Under the pieces are notes generated by a model that was given only the letters and a program-made list of their open reading frames with translations, had not been told where the DNA came from and searched no databases. A DNA stretch of 64,000 bases from Deltaproteobacteria bacterium. Its GTDB lineage: Bacteria; Desulfobacterota; Deferrimicrobia; Deferrimicrobiales; Deferrimicrobiaceae. The position numbers were made by a program, and so were the translations under genes. Positions 1 through 45,250 of the stretch are shown piece by piece (position 1 is the stretch's first letter; every line of letters begins with the position of its first letter). The stretch lies in the NCBI GenBank assembly GCA_021815305.1, contig JAKAHC010000004.1, forward strand, positions 1,343 to 65,342, in the 5' to 3' direction.

Positions 1-441
1 TCGCCACTCGTCTGCCCGGGGCGAAAGGGGCACCTGGTGGATATCCGCATCGGGCTGAACGACGCCTGCGATCGGGCAGGCATCCATCGAATTCCGATTC
101 ACGGGCTGCGGCACACCTTTGGAAGCCAAATGGCGATGGCAGGTGCAAACCCCTTCGCCATTCAGAAGGCGATGGGTCACAAGGACATCAAGACCACGAT
201 GATCTACGTGGATATCGCCAAGCCCCACATCCAGGAGCAGATCGCCAAGCTCAACAAGATCGCGATCCCCCCGCCGCCGTGCGTACGAAGAGCAAATCTC
301 CGATTTCTTTCCGGGAAAGAGATCACGAAATCCCGCAACGCTAACTCCTCTCACCTACAGGAACGACGGCCAACGCCAAGATTTCCGTCAGTTGAGGTCC
401 GAGTTGCCTTTCTCCACTTCGTCGTCATAGACGTCTCGTGA
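1..441 (+). CDS. Tyrosine recombinase / phage-type integrase, C-terminal part (5' end lies outside the window)
   Basis: Frame-1 ORF runs from the window edge. It contains HGLRHTFGS and GHKDIKTTMIY, the His/Arg/Tyr catalytic region of tyrosine recombinases. tRNA-Leu lies 1.6 kb downstream. Confidence 0.8.
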   Translation, partial: SPLVCPGRKGHLVDIRIGLNDACDRAGIHRIPIHGLRHTFGSQMAMAGANPFAIQKAMGHKDIKTTMIYVDIAKPHIQEQIAKLNKIAIPPPPCVRRANLRFLSGKEITKSRNANSSHLQERRPTPRFPSVEVRVAFLHFVVIDVS

Positions 442-38809: not shown

Positions 38810-39007
38810 TCACCCTTCCTCTTCCCAGTAGATGCACGCCACGGGGCACAGGTCGACGGCCCCCTGGATCTCCGATTCTTCCGCCCCGGCCGGGTCGTAC
38901 ACCTCGGCTTTGTTGTCCGCGTCGAACCGGAACACCGACGGCACCGTGTCGATGCACACGCCGCAGGAGATGCACTCCCCCTTGTTGACACGCGCTACGC
39001 GCGGCAT
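38810..39007 (-). CDS. Small 4Fe-4S ferredoxin
   Basis: CISCGVCIDTVP ... CPVACI cysteine pattern. Start chosen at MPRVARV (65 aa). Confidence 0.7.
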   Translation of the reverse strand: MPRVARVNKGECISCGVCIDTVPSVFRFDADNKAEVYDPAGAEESEIQGAVDLCPVACIYWEEEG

Positions 39008-39093
39008 CCTCTTTTTCCCTCCTTGGACGAAAGGGTTGCTGCGTTCCCCTGAGGACAATTATAAGCCCCGGCAAGCGCCGGGGGAGGACGCCG

Positions 39094-41109
39094 TCATCCT
39101 TTCATGGAGCCGGTCCGCTGGAACCGGAGGTGCCAGGCGAACGCCTCGTCCATCAGGTGCGGGGTGTGCTTTCCCGGGGAACCGCTCAACGCGCGCTCGT
39201 AATAGTCCTTGAGCATCGGCCGGTAGTCGGGGTGGACGCACTTCTCGAGGATCTGGACGGCGCGCTGTTTCGGCGAGGTCCCGCGGAGGTCGGCCAACCC
39301 CTGCTCCGTGACGACCACGTCCACGTCGTGCTCGCAATGATCCACGTGGGACACCATGGGGACGACGCAGGAAATGCCGGCGTTCCTGCCCGCCACCGAC
39401 GGCGTGGTGAAGATGGAGATGAAGGAGTTGCGCGCGAAATCCCCGGAGCCGCCGATGCCGTTGATGATGCGCGTCCCGTTGACGTGGGTGGAATTCACGT
39501 TCCCGTACAGGTCGAACTCGACGCACCCGTTCATGGCGATCACTCCCAGCCGCTTGATGACGCCCACGTGGTTGCTTACGGACTGCGGCCGCAGGAGGAT
39601 CTTGTCCTTGTAGAACCGGATGTTCTTCTTGAATCTTTCCACCGCGTCCGGGGAGACCGACAGGGCCGTGGCCGACGCGAAGTCGATCTTCCCCGCATCG
39701 ATCAGGGCGAGCATCCCGTCCTGGATGACCTCCGTGTAGGCGGTCAGGTGCTCGAACTCGGAGTCGAGCAGTCCGTAGAGCACCGCGTTGGCGACATTGC
39801 CCACGCCGGACTGCATCGGGAGGAGGTTCTTCGGAACCCGCCCCTTCGACACCTCGTGCCGCAGGAAGTCGAGGATGTGCTCCGAGATCGCCTTGCTGTC
39901 CCGGTCCGGCTCCTTGAAGACCGTCGTGCGGTCGGGGTGGTTCGTCTCGACGATCGCCTTGATCTTCTCCGCGGGGCAGGAGAGGTACGGGGTGCCGATC
40001 CGGTCGGAAGGTTTCAGGATCGGAATAGGCGAGACGTTGGGCGGCATCTCCGGCTCGTAGACGTCGTGCATCCCCTCGAGCTCCAGGGGATGGTAGTTGT
40101 TCACCTCGAGGATGACCTCGCGCGCCGCGTCGATGAACGCCTGGTTGTTCCCCACGGAGGTGGAGGGGATGAGCTTGCCGTCCCCGGTGATGCCCGCGAC
40201 CTCGACGATCGCCAGGTCGAGCTCGCCGAAGAAACCGCACTTCACGTACTGGGCGACGCTCCCCAGGTGGAAGTCGAAATACTCCATTTTCCCGTAATTG
40301 ATCTTCTCCCGCGCGATGGGGTCGGAGTTGTACGGCATCCGCAACTCGATGCCGTCGACCATCGCCAGCGCCCCGTCGAGCTCGCTGCTGGTGGAGGCGC
40401 CCGTCATGACGGAGATGCGGAATTTCCCCCCCTTGCTGTGCTCCCGGAGGATGTGCTCGGCGAGCGCCTGGGGGACGAGCTTGGGATACCCCGATCCCGT
40501 GAACCCGCTCATGCCGACCTTGTAGCCGTTCCGGATCCGCTCGGCGGCGTCGGTGGCGTAGGTGATCTTCTCCCGCAGCGACTTGTTCCTGACCCTGTGC
40601 CCTCGCATCGGCCCCTCGCTCCCTTTCGTGTTGCCGGCGGGGCGGTCCCCGAACCGTTTCCTCTCCCCGACGACGATGTTGACGGTCTCATCCGCGGCGG
40701 CCGAGATCCTCTCTTTCTCCCCCGGCGGCGCCTCCGCCTCCTCCCGCCGCTCCCCTTCCATCCGCAGCAGCACTCCCTCGAGTTCGCCGTCGGGCCGGTC
40801 GGACATCACGGCCCTCACCTTCCGGAGGGGAAAATAGCGCGCCTGGAGCGCCTTGATGGAGAGTGCCTGGAGGAAATGGCGGAACCCGTACAGGGCGCGC
40901 GTCCCTTCGTAGCGCACGGGACGGTCGACCAGCCCGGCGGAGACGTAGTAACGGATCGTCCGCTCCGTGGGGATCTCCGTGACCTTGTGGCGGGATTGTC
41001 GCCCGGCGACGGCGGGCGTCCACCGGGCGATCAGTCCGACCAGTTCCTCGATGGAAAGATCGGCCCGTTCCCGGAGAGCATCCATGGCCTGAAGAAGTTC
41101 GCTGCCCAT
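39094..41109 (-). CDS. MerR-type HTH domain fused in frame to an acetyl-CoA hydrolase/transferase family (Cat1 / 4-hydroxybutyrate CoA-transferase-like) enzyme
   Basis: N-terminal about 100 aa: LSIEELVGLIARW..ERTIRYYVSAGLVDRPV..YGFRHFLQALSIKALQ (MerR HTH pattern). A Glu-rich linker follows. The CoA-transferase starts near MRGHRVRNKSLREKITYATDAAERIRNGYKVGMSGFTGSGYP and runs about 505 aa. No stop codon lies between the two parts. Confidence 0.7.
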   Translation of the reverse strand: MGSELLQAMDALRERADLSIEELVGLIARWTPAVAGRQSRHKVTEIPTERTIRYYVSAGLVDRPVRYEGTRALYGFRHFLQALSIKALQARYFPLRKVRAVMSDRPDGELEGVLLRMEGERREEAEAPPGEKERISAAADETVNIVVGERKRFGDRPAGNTKGSEGPMRGHRVRNKSLREKITYATDAAERIRNGYKVGMSGFTGSGYPKLVPQALAEHILREHSKGGKFRISVMTGASTSSELDGALAMVDGIELRMPYNSDPIAREKINYGKMEYFDFHLGSVAQYVKCGFFGELDLAIVEVAGITGDGKLIPSTSVGNNQAFIDAAREVILEVNNYHPLELEGMHDVYEPEMPPNVSPIPILKPSDRIGTPYLSCPAEKIKAIVETNHPDRTTVFKEPDRDSKAISEHILDFLRHEVSKGRVPKNLLPMQSGVGNVANAVLYGLLDSEFEHLTAYTEVIQDGMLALIDAGKIDFASATALSVSPDAVERFKKNIRFYKDKILLRPQSVSNHVGVIKRLGVIAMNGCVEFDLYGNVNSTHVNGTRIINGIGGSGDFARNSFISIFTTPSVAGRNAGISCVVPMVSHVDHCEHDVDVVVTEQGLADLRGTSPKQRAVQILEKCVHPDYRPMLKDYYERALSGSPGKHTPHLMDEAFAWHLRFQRTGSMKG

Positions 41110-41123
41110 GGACACTCATTTTT

Positions 41124-41151
41124 ACTGTAAACACTATATAGTGTCAACAGT
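41124..41151 (-). promoter_or_regulatory. 28-bp AT-rich near-perfect palindrome overlapping a sigma70-like promoter (TTGACA - 17 nt - TAAAAA) just upstream of the MerR-domain gene
   Basis: ACTGTAAACACTATATAGTGTCAACAGT, with a perfect CACTATATAGTG core. The minus strand reads TTGACA-ctatatagtgtttacag-TAAAAA and ends 9 nt before the ATG. Confidence 0.5.
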
Positions 41152-41162
41152 ATTTTCCACGT

Positions 41163-41435
41163 TCACCCTTCGTCCCCTCTTGCCCATGCGACCTTCTTCT
41201 CCCTGGGCAGTTTCTTCAACGCGGCCTCCGCCCGGCATGCGGATCGGCGGCTGGGGTGGAGGGCGCATCGGAGGAGCTTCACGGGGGGGTTCGCCCTCGT
41301 GAATGCGGCCCCCTTGCCGGCGCGGTGCGCCCGGAACCGGGCCTCCGGGTCCCGCGCCGTCCCGGTGTAGATCTTCCCCCCCCGGCACGCGATCATGTAG
41401 ACCCACCAGGGGTCTTTCCCGTTCTCCGCGACCAT
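41163..41435 (-). CDS. GIY-YIG nuclease superfamily protein (YhbQ/UPF0213-like)
   Basis: WWVYMIACRGGKIYTGTARDPEARFRAHRAGKGAAFT matches the GIY-YIG core. Confidence 0.7.
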   Translation of the reverse strand: MVAENGKDPWWVYMIACRGGKIYTGTARDPEARFRAHRAGKGAAFTRANPPVKLLRCALHPSRRSACRAEAALKKLPREKKVAWARGDEG

Positions 41436-41594: not shown

Positions 41595-43217
41595 ATGCCG
41601 GAGTTCTCGTACCAAGACCCGTTCCCCCTGGGAAAGGACGACACGAAGTACCGCCTCCTCACGAAGGATTTCGTCTCCGTGGCAAAATTCGACGGGAAGG
41701 AGATCCTCAAGATCGACCCGGAGGGGCTTGCGTTCCTCTCCAACCAGGCGATGCGCGACGTCTCCTTCCTGCTGCGGCCCGCCCACAACGAGCAGGTGGC
41801 GGCGATCCTGTCCGACCCCGAGGCTTCCTCGAACGACAAGGGCGTGGCGGTGGCGTTCCTGCGCAACGCCGAGGTGTCCGCGAACTTCGTCCTCCCTTTC
41901 TGCCAGGACACGGGCACCGCGACGATCGTCGGGAAGAAGGGACAGCGGGTGTGGACCGGCGCGCGGGACGAGGAGTATCTCTCGAAAGGAGTGTTCAAGA
42001 CCTATACGGAGGAGAACCTCCGGTACTCGCAGACGATCCCCCTCGACATGTACGAGGAGGTCAACTCGGGCACCAACCTGCCGGCGCAGATCGATCTCTA
42101 CGCCGCCGAAGGCATGGAGTACCGGTTCCTCTTCGTCGCGAAGGGCGGGGGATCGGCGAACAAGATGTCCCTCTACCAGGAAACCAAGGCGCTCCTGAAC
42201 CCTGCGTCCCTCGAGAAGTTCCTCGTGGAGAAGATGAAGACGCTGGGAACCGCCGCCTGCCCCCCGTACCACCTGGCGTTCGTCGTCGGCGGGACATCCG
42301 CGGAATCCTGCCTGAAAACCGTGAAGCTCGCCTCCACCGGGTACCTCGACCACCTGCCCACGAAGGGGAACCCGGGGGGGCAGGCGTTCCGCGACCTCGA
42401 GTTGGAGGAGAAGCTGCTCCTCGCGGCGCGGAAATCCGGCTACGGCGCCCAGTTCGGCGGGAAACACTTCGTCCACGACGTGCGGGTCGTGCGCCTGCCG
42501 CGCCACGGCGCTTCCTGCCCGGTGGGAATGGGCGTCTCCTGCTCCGCGGACCGGAACGTGAAGGCGAAGATCGACAGGGACGGGATCTGGATCGAGGAGC
42601 TCGACCGCAACCCGGGGCGGCTCATCCCGGCGAGGTACCGCGGGAAGCACGAGCACGGCGTGGTGAAGATCGACCTGAACCGACCGATGAGAGAGATCCT
42701 CGCGGACCTTTCGAAATACCCGGTCACCACGCAGCTCTCCCTCACGGGGACGGTGATCGTGGGGCGGGACATCGCCCACGCGAGGCTGAAAGAACGGCTC
42801 GACCGCGGGGAGGGGTTGCCGCAATACATCAAGGACCATCCGGTCTGCTACGCGGGGCCTGCGAAAACTCCCAAGGGGATGGCGGCCGGTTCCTTCGGCC
42901 CCACCACCGCGGGGCGGATGGACTCCTACGTGGATCTGTTCCAGTCCCACGGCGGGTCGCTCGTCATGATCGCGAAGGGGAACCGCGGCAAGGCCGTGAC
43001 CGACGCGTGCAGGAAGCACGGCGGCTTCTACCTGGGTACGATCGGCGGACCCGCGGCCCTGCTGGCCCAGGAGAACCTCCGGAAGATCGAGGTGCTCGAA
43101 TACCCCGAGCTGGGGATGGAGGCGATCTGGAAGATCGAGGTCGTCGACTTCCCGGCGTTCATCCTGGTGGACGACAAGGGGAACGACTTCTTCCAGCAGA
43201 TCGCCTGCTCCGGCTGA
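41595..43217 (+). CDS. fumA: Class I (Fe-S dependent) fumarate hydratase
   Basis: 540 aa with family-typical N-terminus. Cys ligands are in CQDTGTA. GGAAGGAG RBS upstream. Confidence 0.85.
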
Positions 43218-43335: not shown

Positions 43336-45030
43336 TTAAAACTGCGGCGGCAGCAGCAGCTTCACGATGGCGTCCTTCTCCGCGTCGGTGATCGCGTTGC
43401 CCGACTTGACGCCGCTGATTCGCCCCTGTGCCGCCTGCACCTCGGCAAGGAATGCCTCTTCGTTCGCGGCGCGCTCGGCCCCCGTCGGCCGGCCGCCTCC
43501 GTTCCAGATCTCGTTCCGCTTCATCTGGAGAATGTTCAGGTCTTCCTGCAGCGCAAGGTAGGCGTCGAAAACGCCCGACTGGGTGTTGAAGGTGTGCCTG
43601 CCGGGAGTCCATGTGTATCCGTGGCCCGCGCAGGACGACTGGTCCCAAAAGGCGGTGTTGTCGCACGTTCCCATCCACTGCCGCATCATCTGCGGGATTG
43701 CGGTGTTGTCCCGCGGCCCGTAGTCGAACGTGGTGCCGGCCAGCCAGCTCACAAGGACCACCTGCGGGACCGGCCAGTTCTTCGGGGTCCCGGTCTGGTC
43801 GTAATACAGCCCGAAATCAGGGGGAAGGACGAGCGACGGGTTCGCGGCGAGCAACTGCGATTTCATCGCGTCGATCGAGGTGTTGTCGGCAGCGATGTCC
43901 GTCTGGAACTGCTGCCACCCCGCGTTGTACGCATCGTTCATCGCCGCCTGGACATCGTTGTCGGTCAGGCCCGGATGGGCGGAGAGATAGCCCGCGCGGT
44001 CCATGAAATAGCCGGAGAACTGCTGGTCGACCTGGGCGGAGGTTCTCATCAGTCCCGACACCCCGTTCAGGTACTGCGTCACCTGGGCTCCCGTAGCGCT
44101 CAATCCGTTCAAAGCGTTCGTGTAGTCGGTCGAAATCCGGATGATCGAGATCCGCCGGTCGAAGGTGCTCATCGCCGTCTCGATGGAGGCCTGGAGGCCG
44201 GCCGACAGGGCGCCCATGTGGCCGCCCGCCTGCGCGCCGTCGCCCGCGGCGTTGTGCGCGGCCAGGATCTGTCCCGCGTCGATGCCCGCGCACGTCCCCG
44301 CGTCGAGGAAGACCTCGGCCATGAAACCGCCCGCCTTCTGCATCTCGGAGGAGGCGGCGGCGCTGTCGGCCGTCGCGACGGCGTTGAAGAAGTTGCGGGT
44401 GAAGTTCCGCAGCGTCTTGGCGTTGTTGTCGGGATTGTAGATGAGGCATTTCTTCAGGTCCGCAAGCTTGGCCGCCGAAACCCCTTTCGACAGGAGGTAG
44501 CTTTCGAAACCGAGCGTCGGGTTCGACAGCGCGTCCCTGCCCAGGTAGGCGATGTTGTCGATGTCGGCCGAGGTGACGTCGGGCGACCGCAGGATGATGA
44601 ACAGGTACGCGGCCACGATCGGGTCGTCGGAACCGCTGACGGCGGCGGCGCGGATCAGGGCCTGCGCCTGGGTCGTGGAAAGATAGTTCAATCCGGTGGC
44701 GTTGTTGTCGTCCGGGGGAGGGGCCGGCGCCATGCCCTGGCGGACGACGGCGCCGCCGGCGTCCCGGATCGTTATGAAGATGAAGTTCGCTTCATCCTTC
44801 GTCGGAACCCGGGTCAGCGTGAAGGAGAGCACCCCGGCGGCATCGGTCGTGCCGTTGACCGTCTCGAGGTCCTCGAGCGCGCCCGCGGAGGTCAGCTTGC
44901 TGATGGTGATGGTGTACGCAGCGCTGGCCGCAAGGGGGTCGGTGGAAGGCGTGCCGACGGCGAAGGCGTTTGCCGCCAGAAGGATGGCGAACAGAGCCGC
45001 CGTGAAACCAAGTGTTCCCTTGTTTCCCAT
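43336..45030 (-). CDS. Large secreted protein of unknown function (564 aa)
   Basis: Signal peptide MGNKGTLGFTAALFAILLAANAFAVG, GGGAGAAG RBS, and Ala/Gly/Asn/Thr-rich mature protein. No recognisable catalytic motif. Confidence 0.6.
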   Translation of the reverse strand: MGNKGTLGFTAALFAILLAANAFAVGTPSTDPLAASAAYTITISKLTSAGALEDLETVNGTTDAAGVLSFTLTRVPTKDEANFIFITIRDAGGAVVRQGMAPAPPPDDNNATGLNYLSTTQAQALIRAAAVSGSDDPIVAAYLFIILRSPDVTSADIDNIAYLGRDALSNPTLGFESYLLSKGVSAAKLADLKKCLIYNPDNNAKTLRNFTRNFFNAVATADSAAASSEMQKAGGFMAEVFLDAGTCAGIDAGQILAAHNAAGDGAQAGGHMGALSAGLQASIETAMSTFDRRISIIRISTDYTNALNGLSATGAQVTQYLNGVSGLMRTSAQVDQQFSGYFMDRAGYLSAHPGLTDNDVQAAMNDAYNAGWQQFQTDIAADNTSIDAMKSQLLAANPSLVLPPDFGLYYDQTGTPKNWPVPQVVLVSWLAGTTFDYGPRDNTAIPQMMRQWMGTCDNTAFWDQSSCAGHGYTWTPGRHTFNTQSGVFDAYLALQEDLNILQMKRNEIWNGGGRPTGAERAANEEAFLAEVQAAQGRISGVKSGNAITDAEKDAIVKLLLPPQF

Positions 45031-45109
45031 GGTTCTTCTCCCTGGGCCGGAGCCGCCTTCCGGCGTTCCGGCGATGGATTCGTGGTTCCTTGCAGGTTCC
45101 CGCCGTGGT

Positions 45110-45250
45110 TTACCGCGCGTTGCCATCGACCGTGCCCGTAGGCGCAGAGGGAGCAGGAGAAGCCGGAGTGGCGCCGCCGCCGCAACCCGAAAAACCCAAC
45201 ACCGCGACAAGGACCGCCATCGCCAACCAGGAAAGACTTTTTCGACGCAT
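45110..45250 (-). CDS. Small putative lipoprotein (46 aa)
   Basis: MRRKSLSWLAMAVLVAVLGFSGC has a lipobox L-G-F-S-G-C. It lies 80 nt upstream of the large secreted protein gene. Confidence 0.3.
   Translation of the reverse strand: MRRKSLSWLAMAVLVAVLGFSGCGGGATPASPAPSAPTGTVDGNAR

Follow-up and report, generated by a model that had tools for sequence, protein, structure and literature searches.

A GlnR-like DNA-binding domain joined to a predicted succinyl-CoA:acetate CoA-transferase in Deferrimicrobiaceae: a candidate autoregulating trigger enzyme

A 64,000-nucleotide (nt) stretch of DNA from a Deltaproteobacteria bacterium of the family Deferrimicrobiaceae (assembly GCA_021815305.1, contig JAKAHC010000004.1, positions 1,343 to 65,342; hereafter the window) encodes a protein of 671 amino acids in which a DNA-binding domain of the MerR superfamily is joined, in one reading frame, to a class I coenzyme A (CoA) transferase predicted to be a succinyl-CoA:acetate CoA-transferase (SCACT). 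The fusion is old and fixed in its lineage, and its gene is preceded by a promoter overlapped by a conserved inverted repeat. We consider it moderately probable that the protein is a 'trigger enzyme' acting on its own gene, in a covalent counterpart of the circuit formed by glutamine synthetase and GlnR. A one-component regulator that senses its own chemistry, as proposed in a first-pass annotation of the locus, is a candidate reading that fits the evidence.

A single-frame fusion of a regulatory and an enzymatic domain

The protein consists of three parts: a MerR_1 winged helix (residues 1-119), a disordered, Glu-rich linker (residues 120-167; RMEGERREEAEAPPGEKERISAAADE...) and a CoA-transferase (residues 168-671). 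No stop codon separates the DNA-binding and enzyme domains. Pfam profiles place MerR_1 (PF13411) at residues 50-105 with 35.8 bits against a cut-off of 21.6, AcetylCoA_hydro at residues 179-390 and AcetylCoA_hyd_C at residues 503-638. The in-frame union of a helix-turn-helix (HTH) domain with an enzyme through a Glu-rich linker, as the first-pass annotation described it, is thus borne out: there is a single open reading frame (ORF), both domains match Pfam profiles, and the N-terminal region passes the MerR hidden Markov model. The exact 671-residue product is present on five contigs.

The same architecture recurs in relatives. A whole-protein search recovered 19 clusters (at 90% identity) of 660-705 residues that carry PF13411 and both CoA-transferase domains, and at least 12 independent assemblies, which span about 55% identity in the DNA-binding domain, encode the fusion in a single frame. 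With one genome taken per GTDB species, Candidatus Deferrimicrobium sp. (L005) is 84% identical over the DNA-binding domain, its gene being interrupted by a contig end, and five more metagenome-assembled genomes (L006-L010) align with residues 1-671 in a single frame by tblastn. Another intact single-frame fusion is encoded at L017, and three additional full-length copies lie on metagenome contigs (L023-L025). When the N-terminal 182 residues were searched exhaustively against 1.84 billion representative proteins, a single one of the best 150 matches was fused to a CoA-transferase, namely the cluster that contains the window protein; at 50% clustering the fusion thus belongs to one lineage alone.

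An assembly or sequencing artefact, or a recent loss of a stop codon that joined two working genes, would also yield such an ORF, and the databases do hold short entries that appear as standalone MerR proteins of 135-178 residues (P0002-P0006) as well as an enzyme of 504 residues (P0174). Those that could be traced do not withstand inspection. P0001 and P0006 come from long-read contigs (L002, ERZ25039596 contig_29336; L003, ERZ25039462 contig_7480) in which tblastn reveals frameshifts across the fusion and neighbouring genes, the fumarase gene of L003 among them. P0002 and P0005 stop in the middle of the linker and look truncated; for P0002-P0005 no contig is on record. P0174, seemingly an unfused orthologue with 92% identity, has an intact DNA-binding domain encoded in frame in its upstream DNA: at L017:1536-3542 (GCA_028719145.1, JAQUKL010000031.1) the deposited NCBI call starts at an internal Met and gives 504 residues, leaving as 'intergenic' 600 bp that actually encode the DNA-binding domain in frame. 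P0175 probably carries the same start-annotation error. The stops or frameshifts between the domains that were looked for in orthologues thus proved, in the traced cases, to be error-ridden contigs or a misplaced start. Together with the single-frame fusion in the independent assemblies, these cases refute the artefact explanation.

Genuinely unfused enzymes do exist (P0177 at L018, P0180 at L019 and P0184 at L020). No separate MerR-like gene lies directly upstream of an SCACT gene in the 12 genome loci or the inspected contexts, and the nearest two-gene arrangement is the TetR and SCACT pair of L019. Pairwise Nei-Gojobori estimates of the ratio of nonsynonymous to synonymous substitution rates (dN/dS) put the DNA-binding domain at 0.10-0.36, the enzyme at 0.07-0.18 and the linker at 0.4-1.1. 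Judged by these rates, selection maintains both domains and hardly constrains the linker. Public records name the orthologues 'succinate CoA transferase [Candidatus Deferrimicrobium sp.]' (e.g. WP_330893514.1), which makes that genus, of the MBNT15 lineage, the most likely source of the window; by using the plain enzyme name or by starting the protein at the internal Met, public annotation has overlooked the regulatory half.

The DNA-binding half was modelled with AlphaFold2 (AF2) from a 56-sequence alignment at a predicted local distance difference test score (pLDDT) of 89.4. When the model was compared with the PDB by Foldseek, ranks 1-42 were all MerR-family proteins. The best structural match was the GlnR-DNA complex 7tea (template modelling score 0.80, normalised to GlnR; root-mean-square deviation 2.1 Å), followed by PbrR, CadR, BmrR, TipAN, TnrA and CueR. 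A profile search of PDB sequences concurs, with PbrR at 2e-5 and GlnR, to which sequence similarity is low, at E-values of 7e-4 to 2e-3. TnrA and GlnR differ from classical MerR proteins in having an additional helix α1', no C-terminal coiled coil, weak dimers on DNA and optimally spaced promoters (PMC4335299). The AF2 model has α1' and lacks the coiled coil: where classical MerR proteins have a long coiled-coil helix, an α5 of 13 residues is followed by the disordered linker. In place of the flexible C-terminal tail with which the TnrA/GlnR family binds glutamine synthetase or GlnK and controls dimerization, the linker and the CoA-transferase follow. Between α1 and the recognition helix sits a conserved insertion of 12-13 residues (residues 36-48, nt ~40966-41004 on the minus strand; consensus Q-x-R-Y/H-K-V-T-E/D-x-P), which is why the MerR_1 match begins only at profile position 13. 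Because α1', the missing coiled coil and the optimal promoter spacing agree with TnrA/GlnR while the operator and glutamine synthetase-binding tail do not, the model points to a GlnR-like branch of the MerR superfamily outside TnrA/GlnR proper. The MerR-type assignment of the first-pass annotation therefore holds at the level of the MerR_1 profile, but not in the classical sense: the domain is GlnR/TnrA-like, without a coiled coil and with a 17-bp promoter spacer.

The enzyme half matches the NCBIfam model TIGR03458 'succinate CoA transferase' over its full length (751.7 bits, cut-off 658.7) and the ScpC equivalog NF053853 (724.7 bits, cut-off 500), whereas it falls below the cut-off of 740 for the butyryl-CoA:acetate model (609.5 bits). 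The Cat1-type subfamily named in the first-pass annotation is therefore right, and 4-hydroxybutyrate CoA-transferase is not, as enzymes of that kind match only part of the sequence (~1e-22). The domain aligns end to end with AarC of Acetobacter aceti (4eu3/4eud; E ~1e-175), in which Glu294 is the nucleophile, Asn347 and Gly388 form the internal and external oxyanion hole, Ser71, Thr94 and Arg228 bind carboxylate and Val270 also has an assigned role (PMC4876117). In crystals, two AarC subunits are arranged about a pseudo-twofold axis (PMC4876117). The alignment equates Glu294, Asn347 and Gly388 with Glu460, Asn513 and Gly554 of the fusion, and Ser71, Arg228 and Val270 with Ser239, Arg394 and Val436; the only change among the checked residues is the conservative replacement of Thr94 by Ser262. 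Nothing in the sequence suggests a dead enzyme, and an active-looking SCACT is predicted.

A pseudoenzyme sensor, in which the protein acts as a regulator only, as BzdR does, while another gene supplies SCACT activity, is quite improbable on this evidence. Enzyme-derived sensor domains have precedent (PMC3602430), and the check for a second copy covered the window only. Within those 64 kb, however, no second SCACT copy was found, the checked catalytic and substrate-binding residues of AarC are kept apart from the conservative change to Ser, and the dN/dS of the enzyme is as low as 0.07-0.18. The domain is furthermore 84-87% identical to unfused enzymes, one of which (L018) shares its downstream genes.

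Origin of the linker and two candidate start sites

The full-length AF2 model has a pLDDT of 70.8; as the C-terminus of the enzyme is of low confidence in it (shallow alignment), the model was used for the linker and the domain boundaries only. In this model residues 118-167 are disordered, with linker pLDDT below 50. The linker drifts near-neutrally and cannot be aligned between clades, yet a Shine-Dalgarno (SD) sequence persists within it. In every orthologue CGAAAGGAG or a close variant stands 7-10 nt before an internal in-frame ATG, which in the window is the codon of Met168 and which marks the ancestral enzyme start. Twelve fused genes retain CGAAAGGAG itself, which matches the true SD of two unfused genes; the motifs in unfused 5' untranslated regions (UTRs) read tcGAAAGGAGA in L018 and tcGAAAGGAGc in L019. 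Predicted pairing of the internal site with the anti-SD ranges from -6.5 to -9.0 kcal/mol, which ranks it in the top ~4-7% of codon positions in seven of eight orthologues.

The surrounding sequence is likewise recognizable in the unfused relatives. Translated in frame, the 5' UTR of L018 gives RPVKFERRSTDMT, to be compared with KPAKIERGRTDMT in the linker of L009, and the spacer between the TetR and SCACT genes of L019 gives (stop)HTGIIERSGPTM, to be compared with HTGDQERSSGMM (L006) and ETGAQERSIGMM (L008). Because of this homology the linker is taken to be the tail of a former regulator plus an old intergenic spacer. In the unfused arrangement at L019:3425-5512, whose SCACT is 86% identical, the TetR stop codon lies 36 nt upstream of the enzyme ATG and in frame with it. 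The comparison of these sequences shows that the fusion was born by loss of the stop codon between an upstream regulator and the enzyme, after which translation ran on through a spacer of ~36 nt. A merger of two genes by a lost stop codon, the second possibility raised in the first-pass annotation, therefore describes the origin of the gene, as the ancestral SD and ATG in the linker attest; a recent or erroneous merger it is not, the fusion being old and fixed.

The first ATG has no SD of its own (anti-SD pairing of +0.7 to -4.2 kcal/mol). The mRNA is predicted to be leaderless or nearly so because this ATG follows the -10 element by 7-11 nt. The survival of the internal SD in a drifting linker suggests that it is still used. 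One gene may accordingly give two products, a 74-kDa regulator-enzyme and, by internal initiation, a free 55-kDa enzyme of 504 residues, a proposal whose chances we judge to be evenly balanced.

Promoter, candidate operator and regulatory model

A TTGACA-N17-TAAAAA promoter that ends 9 nt (TGAGTGTCC) before the ATG, and thus is almost leaderless, had been reported in the first-pass annotation; the letters of the window confirm it, and a corresponding promoter is seen in 16 orthologues. The 16 orthologous upstream regions were aligned, and the -10 consensus of these promoters is TAwAwn. A promoter scan reads AAAAAT (41118-41123) with an 18-nt spacer as the -10 element instead (10/12 matches). 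The 53-bp intergenic stretch has 34% G+C, against 66% for the window. The palindrome noted there in the first-pass annotation is real, and inverted-repeat analysis extends it from the 28 bp originally given to 30 bp (41123-41152).

On the minus strand the dyad reads TACTGT-TG-ACACTAT / ATAGTGT-TT-ACAGTA, the slash marking its centre, which lies 4 nt past the -35 element. It can be resolved into two 12-bp inverted repeats, ACTGTTGACACT and AGTGTTTACAGT, spaced 16 bp apart, which contain four ACA(C/G)T pentamers arranged as ACTGT-TG-ACACT and AGTGT-TT-ACAGT, with ASTGT-TK-ACAST as their common form. The two-repeat, 16-bp layout is legible in the divergent promoter of L007 and also in the promoters of the standalone branch members L004 and L011. 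The alignment displays a conserved block around TATTTACTGTTGACACTATATAGTGTTTACAGTAAATA, with a dyad of 38 bp in the Deferrimicrobium clade, while the sequence farther upstream and the 7-11 nt preceding the ATG vary among the 16 promoters. An extra half-site covers the predicted start of transcription and reads AGTGTCA in L006, L008 and L009 and GGTGTCA in L010; in L006 and L008 this third copy was counted to follow the second repeat in the 16-bp register, and the window has just a shifted remnant of it (GAGTGTCC).

The candidate operator is rare. Its 14-bp core ACACTATATAGTGT occurs once in the window even when up to three mismatches are allowed (0.13 expected), and the 12-bp repeat has no other occurrence in the 64 kb with at most one mismatch. 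In metagenomes, a degenerate 25-bp operator pattern matched six times, and all six matches lie 11-13 nt upstream of the ATG of a fusion orthologue. Taken together, the scans of window and metagenomes have so far indicated one target, the promoter of the fusion gene itself. Rfam returned no RNA element in or near the locus.

A classical MerR activator, which would untwist the promoter upon ligand binding between -35 and -10, might be suspected from the MerR_1 match and the dyad inside the core promoter. Such proteins act on an overlong spacer of 19-20 bp with a centred dyad; here 15 of 16 orthologues have an optimal spacer of 17 bp, and the dyad is centred near -35 rather than in mid-spacer. 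The long coiled-coil helix is absent from the AF2 model as well, and among known structures the model comes closest to GlnR rather than to a metal- or drug-responsive MerR. This explanation is improbable.

The circuit of GlnR and TnrA offers a closer parallel. In it the enzyme is the controlling partner, the regulators dimerize weakly and the promoters are optimally spaced (PMC4335299, PMC9249791). Feedback-inhibited glutamine synthetase tethers GlnR domains and so raises their local concentration, and GlnR represses glnRA (PMC9249791). By analogy, the dimeric body of the CoA-transferase would bring two weakly dimerizing GlnR-like domains together, and these would bind the dyad spanning -35 to -10 and repress their own promoter. 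The promoter is already well spaced and is covered by the site from -35 to -10, so bound protein should keep RNA polymerase out; repression is therefore proposed. The outcome would be autogenous control of how much enzyme is made. How well the DNA-binding domains fit the operator probably depends on the ligand state of the enzyme body (open or closed; with acyl-CoA, with CoA or as acyl-enzyme), so that expression would follow the supply of acetate and succinyl-CoA. Internal initiation on the same leaderless mRNA would supply free enzyme. A more ambitious form of the proposal is doubtful: a covalent analogue of the glutamine synthetase-GlnR pair in the tricarboxylic acid (TCA) cycle, in which the dimer reads the acyl-CoA/CoA state, the proportion of long to short isoforms in mixed dimers tunes how many dimers have two DNA-binding domains and so can bind DNA, and fusions of the GlnR-like module to a GRDB domain mark a wider, undescribed family of enzyme-tethered regulators.

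Several observations weigh against the trigger-enzyme proposal. A disordered, near-neutral linker of ~50 residues argues against tight coupling between the active site and the DNA-binding domain, and close relatives do without the fusion (L018, L020) or have a TetR regulator (L019). Neither GlnR nor the Pfam MerR_1 profile has a counterpart of the insertion after α1, which is also modelled less confidently by AF2 (pLDDT 61-74). On the side of the DNA, inspection of both promoter strands in the window and the orthologues found no GlnR 17-mer TGTNAN7TNACA, and the centre spacings of the pentamers (7, 9 and 7 bp) match no solved MerR operator. Part of the dyad is made up of the -35 and -10 hexamers, and some of its conservation could be that of the promoter. 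The metagenome pattern was strict, and degenerate sites at other genes would escape it. Finally, we infer not only the signal but also that the protein binds DNA and that it represses.

The strongest competing explanation is simple autogenous repression in which no metabolite is sensed; we judge it fairly unlikely. The DNA-binding domain would then report the concentration of the enzyme, the body would serve as a dimerization scaffold and the SCACT would simply be held at a set level. The long, disordered and nearly neutral linker speaks for it, as does an operator seen only at the gene's own promoter; in addition, the window lineage has lost the C-terminal segment of the standalone proteins, as if the enzyme had replaced a dimerization or sensor part. 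Yet the TetR gene beside the enzyme gene in L019 suggests a need to respond to conditions, and the closest structural relatives, GlnR and TnrA, are governed by the state of an enzyme.

Genomic context, related systems and significance

The coordinates of the features are collected in Table 1. On the plus strand, the gene order is recN, nadK, rarA, ferredoxin, fusion, GIY-YIG ORF and fumarase. The possible hairpin terminator lies just past the stop codon of the fusion, before the ferredoxin gene. This order is kept in Deferrimicrobium relatives, the ferredoxin and GIY-YIG genes included, and the fumarase is also found in L010. At L019, the unfused enzyme gene that follows the TetR gene has succinate dehydrogenase/fumarate reductase genes just downstream. 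The context fits a role in the TCA cycle or in acetate activation with dedicated regulation. Farther away, an ORF of 624 residues at 43336-45210 (minus strand), called as 564 residues on L001, has no Pfam family on record.

Table 1. Features of the fusion locus. Positions count from the first letter of the window; residue numbers (aa, amino acids) refer to the 671-residue protein.
Feature	Position	Strand	Basis or remark
Whole fusion gene, 671 aa	39094..41109	-	ORF list; span includes stop codon
Alternative start, in-frame GTG, 673 aa	41115	-	ORF list
DNA-binding domain, aa 1-119	40753..41109	-	Pfam MerR_1, AF2 model, Foldseek, dN/dS
DNA-binding domain elements	aa: α1' 4-12; α1 20-35; insertion 36-48; recognition helix 49-57		AF2
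DNA-binding domain elements, continued	aa: β-hairpin wing 66-74; α3 76-89; α4 95-102; short α5 107-119		AF2
Linker, aa 120-167	40609..40752	-	pLDDT < 50, dN/dS, homology to 5' UTRs of unfused relatives
Predicted succinyl-CoA:acetate CoA-transferase domain, class I, AarC/YgfH subfamily, aa 168-671	39097..40608	-	TIGR03458, ScpC, AarC alignment
Codon of Glu460 (equivalent of AarC nucleophile Glu294)	39730..39732	-	Alignment
Putative operator, 30-bp dyad	41123..41152	.	15-nt arms, 87% complementary, gapless
-35 element TTGACA, within left half of dyad	41142..41147	-	Invariant in 16/16 orthologues
-10 element TAAAAA, 17-nt spacer	41119..41124	-	Spacer 17 nt in 15/16 orthologues, 16 in one
Conserved ATG start	41107..41109	-	9 nt past -10; 7-11 nt in 16 orthologues
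Retained SD-like motif AAAGGGAGCGAGGGG inside ORF	40612..40626	-	-8.6 kcal/mol, top ~5% of codon positions
Internal in-frame ATG (Met168), ancestral enzyme start	40606..40608	-	Unfused P0177, P0178 and P0180 begin here
All-G+C 7-bp hairpin, possible terminator/attenuator	39066..39083	-	Consensus scan only, T-tail weak
Small 4Fe-4S ferredoxin gene	38810-39058	-	Downstream of fusion
GIY-YIG ORF	41163-41435	-	Ends 10 nt ahead of palindrome
Class I fumarase gene, divergent	41595-43217	+	

The GlnR-like branch extends well beyond the fusion. Among the 1.84 billion representatives, it comprises 375 representative clusters at E < 1e-10, and most of its members are proteins of ~200 residues annotated merely as 'MerR regulator'. 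A profile-based census of architectures gave only such standalone ~200-residue 'DNA-binding transcriptional MerR regulator' proteins and missed the fusions. The standalone members (P0012-P0015 and most of P0016-P0155) end in a conserved segment, W-x-R...P-G-x-E-x-H-x-R-E-D, without a Pfam match. The fusions of 696-705 residues (P0166, P0168, P0170 and P0173) retain this segment as RWESVELxPGVELRIRGG; in the Deferrimicrobium lineage, the window included, it is deleted.

Other members of the branch were met along the way. In five representative clusters of 335-359 residues (P0028, P0078, P0087, P0093 and P0150) the GlnR-like module continues into the C-terminal portion of a GRDB domain (PF07355, profile positions ~213-347, E 1e-42 to 1e-45), a second enzyme-type partner unrelated to the CoA-transferase. 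P0011 (387 residues) has two tandem GlnR-like modules behind a Gln-rich N-terminus. P0007, a standalone member of 169 residues at L004:5840-7974, overlaps by 4 nt a gene of 530 residues whose product, by a look at its sequence, resembles a VIT/vWA protein. The promoter of L004 is of the same style as that of the fusion: it has TTGACA and the inverted repeat ACTGT...ACAGT, and the ATG follows the -10 element within a few nt.

Compared with known systems, the fusion most resembles GlnR and TnrA (Firmicutes glnRA; PDB 7tea, 4r4e, 4r22) in its MerR-derived winged helix, its α1' and its lack of a coiled coil, and in a candidate operator that overlaps the optimally spaced promoter of regulator and enzyme. 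In glnRA a metabolic enzyme decides whether GlnR binds DNA; that the same logic operates here is a proposal. In contrast to GlnR and TnrA, it has its enzyme on the same polypeptide, a CoA-transferase rather than glutamine synthetase; the operator is not TGTNAN7TNACA, the 12-13-residue insertion is present and the glutamine synthetase-binding C-tail is missing. With classical MerR proteins (MerR, CueR, SoxR, BmrR, CadR, PbrR) the fusion shares the winged helix, an RYY signature and a dyad within the core promoter, but not the coiled-coil helix, the 19-20-bp spacer or the small C-terminal effector pocket. The enzyme half has the nucleophilic Glu, the oxyanion-hole pair and the carboxylate-binding residues of AarC (PDB 4eu3-4eud), YgfH/ScpC and Cat1, whereas a DNA-binding domain is lacking in AarC, in YgfH and in the unfused enzymes closest to it (L018-L020).

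Trigger enzymes with a DNA-binding domain of their own include PutA (ribbon-helix-helix and proline dehydrogenase), BirA (winged HTH and biotin ligase) and NadR. To our knowledge, trigger enzymes are few, and each is informative on how a genome reads metabolism. We also know of no retained internal SD and ATG as a feature of PutA, BirA, NadR or BzdR. BzdR combines an XRE-type HTH with a shikimate kinase-like sensor of benzoyl-CoA, and its evolution from an enzyme has been discussed (PMC3602430). The fusion resembles these four in having a DNA-binding domain and an enzyme or enzyme-derived domain in one polypeptide, with a candidate operator at its own promoter; BzdR, moreover, reads an acyl-CoA. 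It differs from them in its GlnR/MerR-like DNA-binding domain, its class I CoA-transferase and an apparently single target promoter. No description of a MerR/GlnR-type or HTH domain joined to a CoA-transferase was found in the literature searched. Thus, fusions of enzymes and DNA-binding domains that regulate their own pathway are already known, and it is the pairing of MerR/GlnR with a CoA-transferase that appears undescribed.

If the proposal is true, this protein would be the first trigger enzyme with a CoA-transferase and the first GlnR-type domain physically joined to its controlling enzyme, and it could serve to test directly the idea that tethering raises the local concentration of GlnR domains. 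Given the GRDB fusions, enzyme-tethered members of the GlnR-like branch may be a recurring theme. The locus also records how two genes became one, since spacer, SD and ATG are still legible in the linker beside unfused relatives, and the combination of a predicted leaderless first start with an internal start allows the idea that one gene yields two products to be tested. Candidatus Deferrimicrobium and MBNT15 are uncultured bacteria of peat and sediment with predicted iron respiration (PMC9386147). In such predicted iron respirers, control over the flux of acetate and succinyl-CoA would be ecologically relevant.

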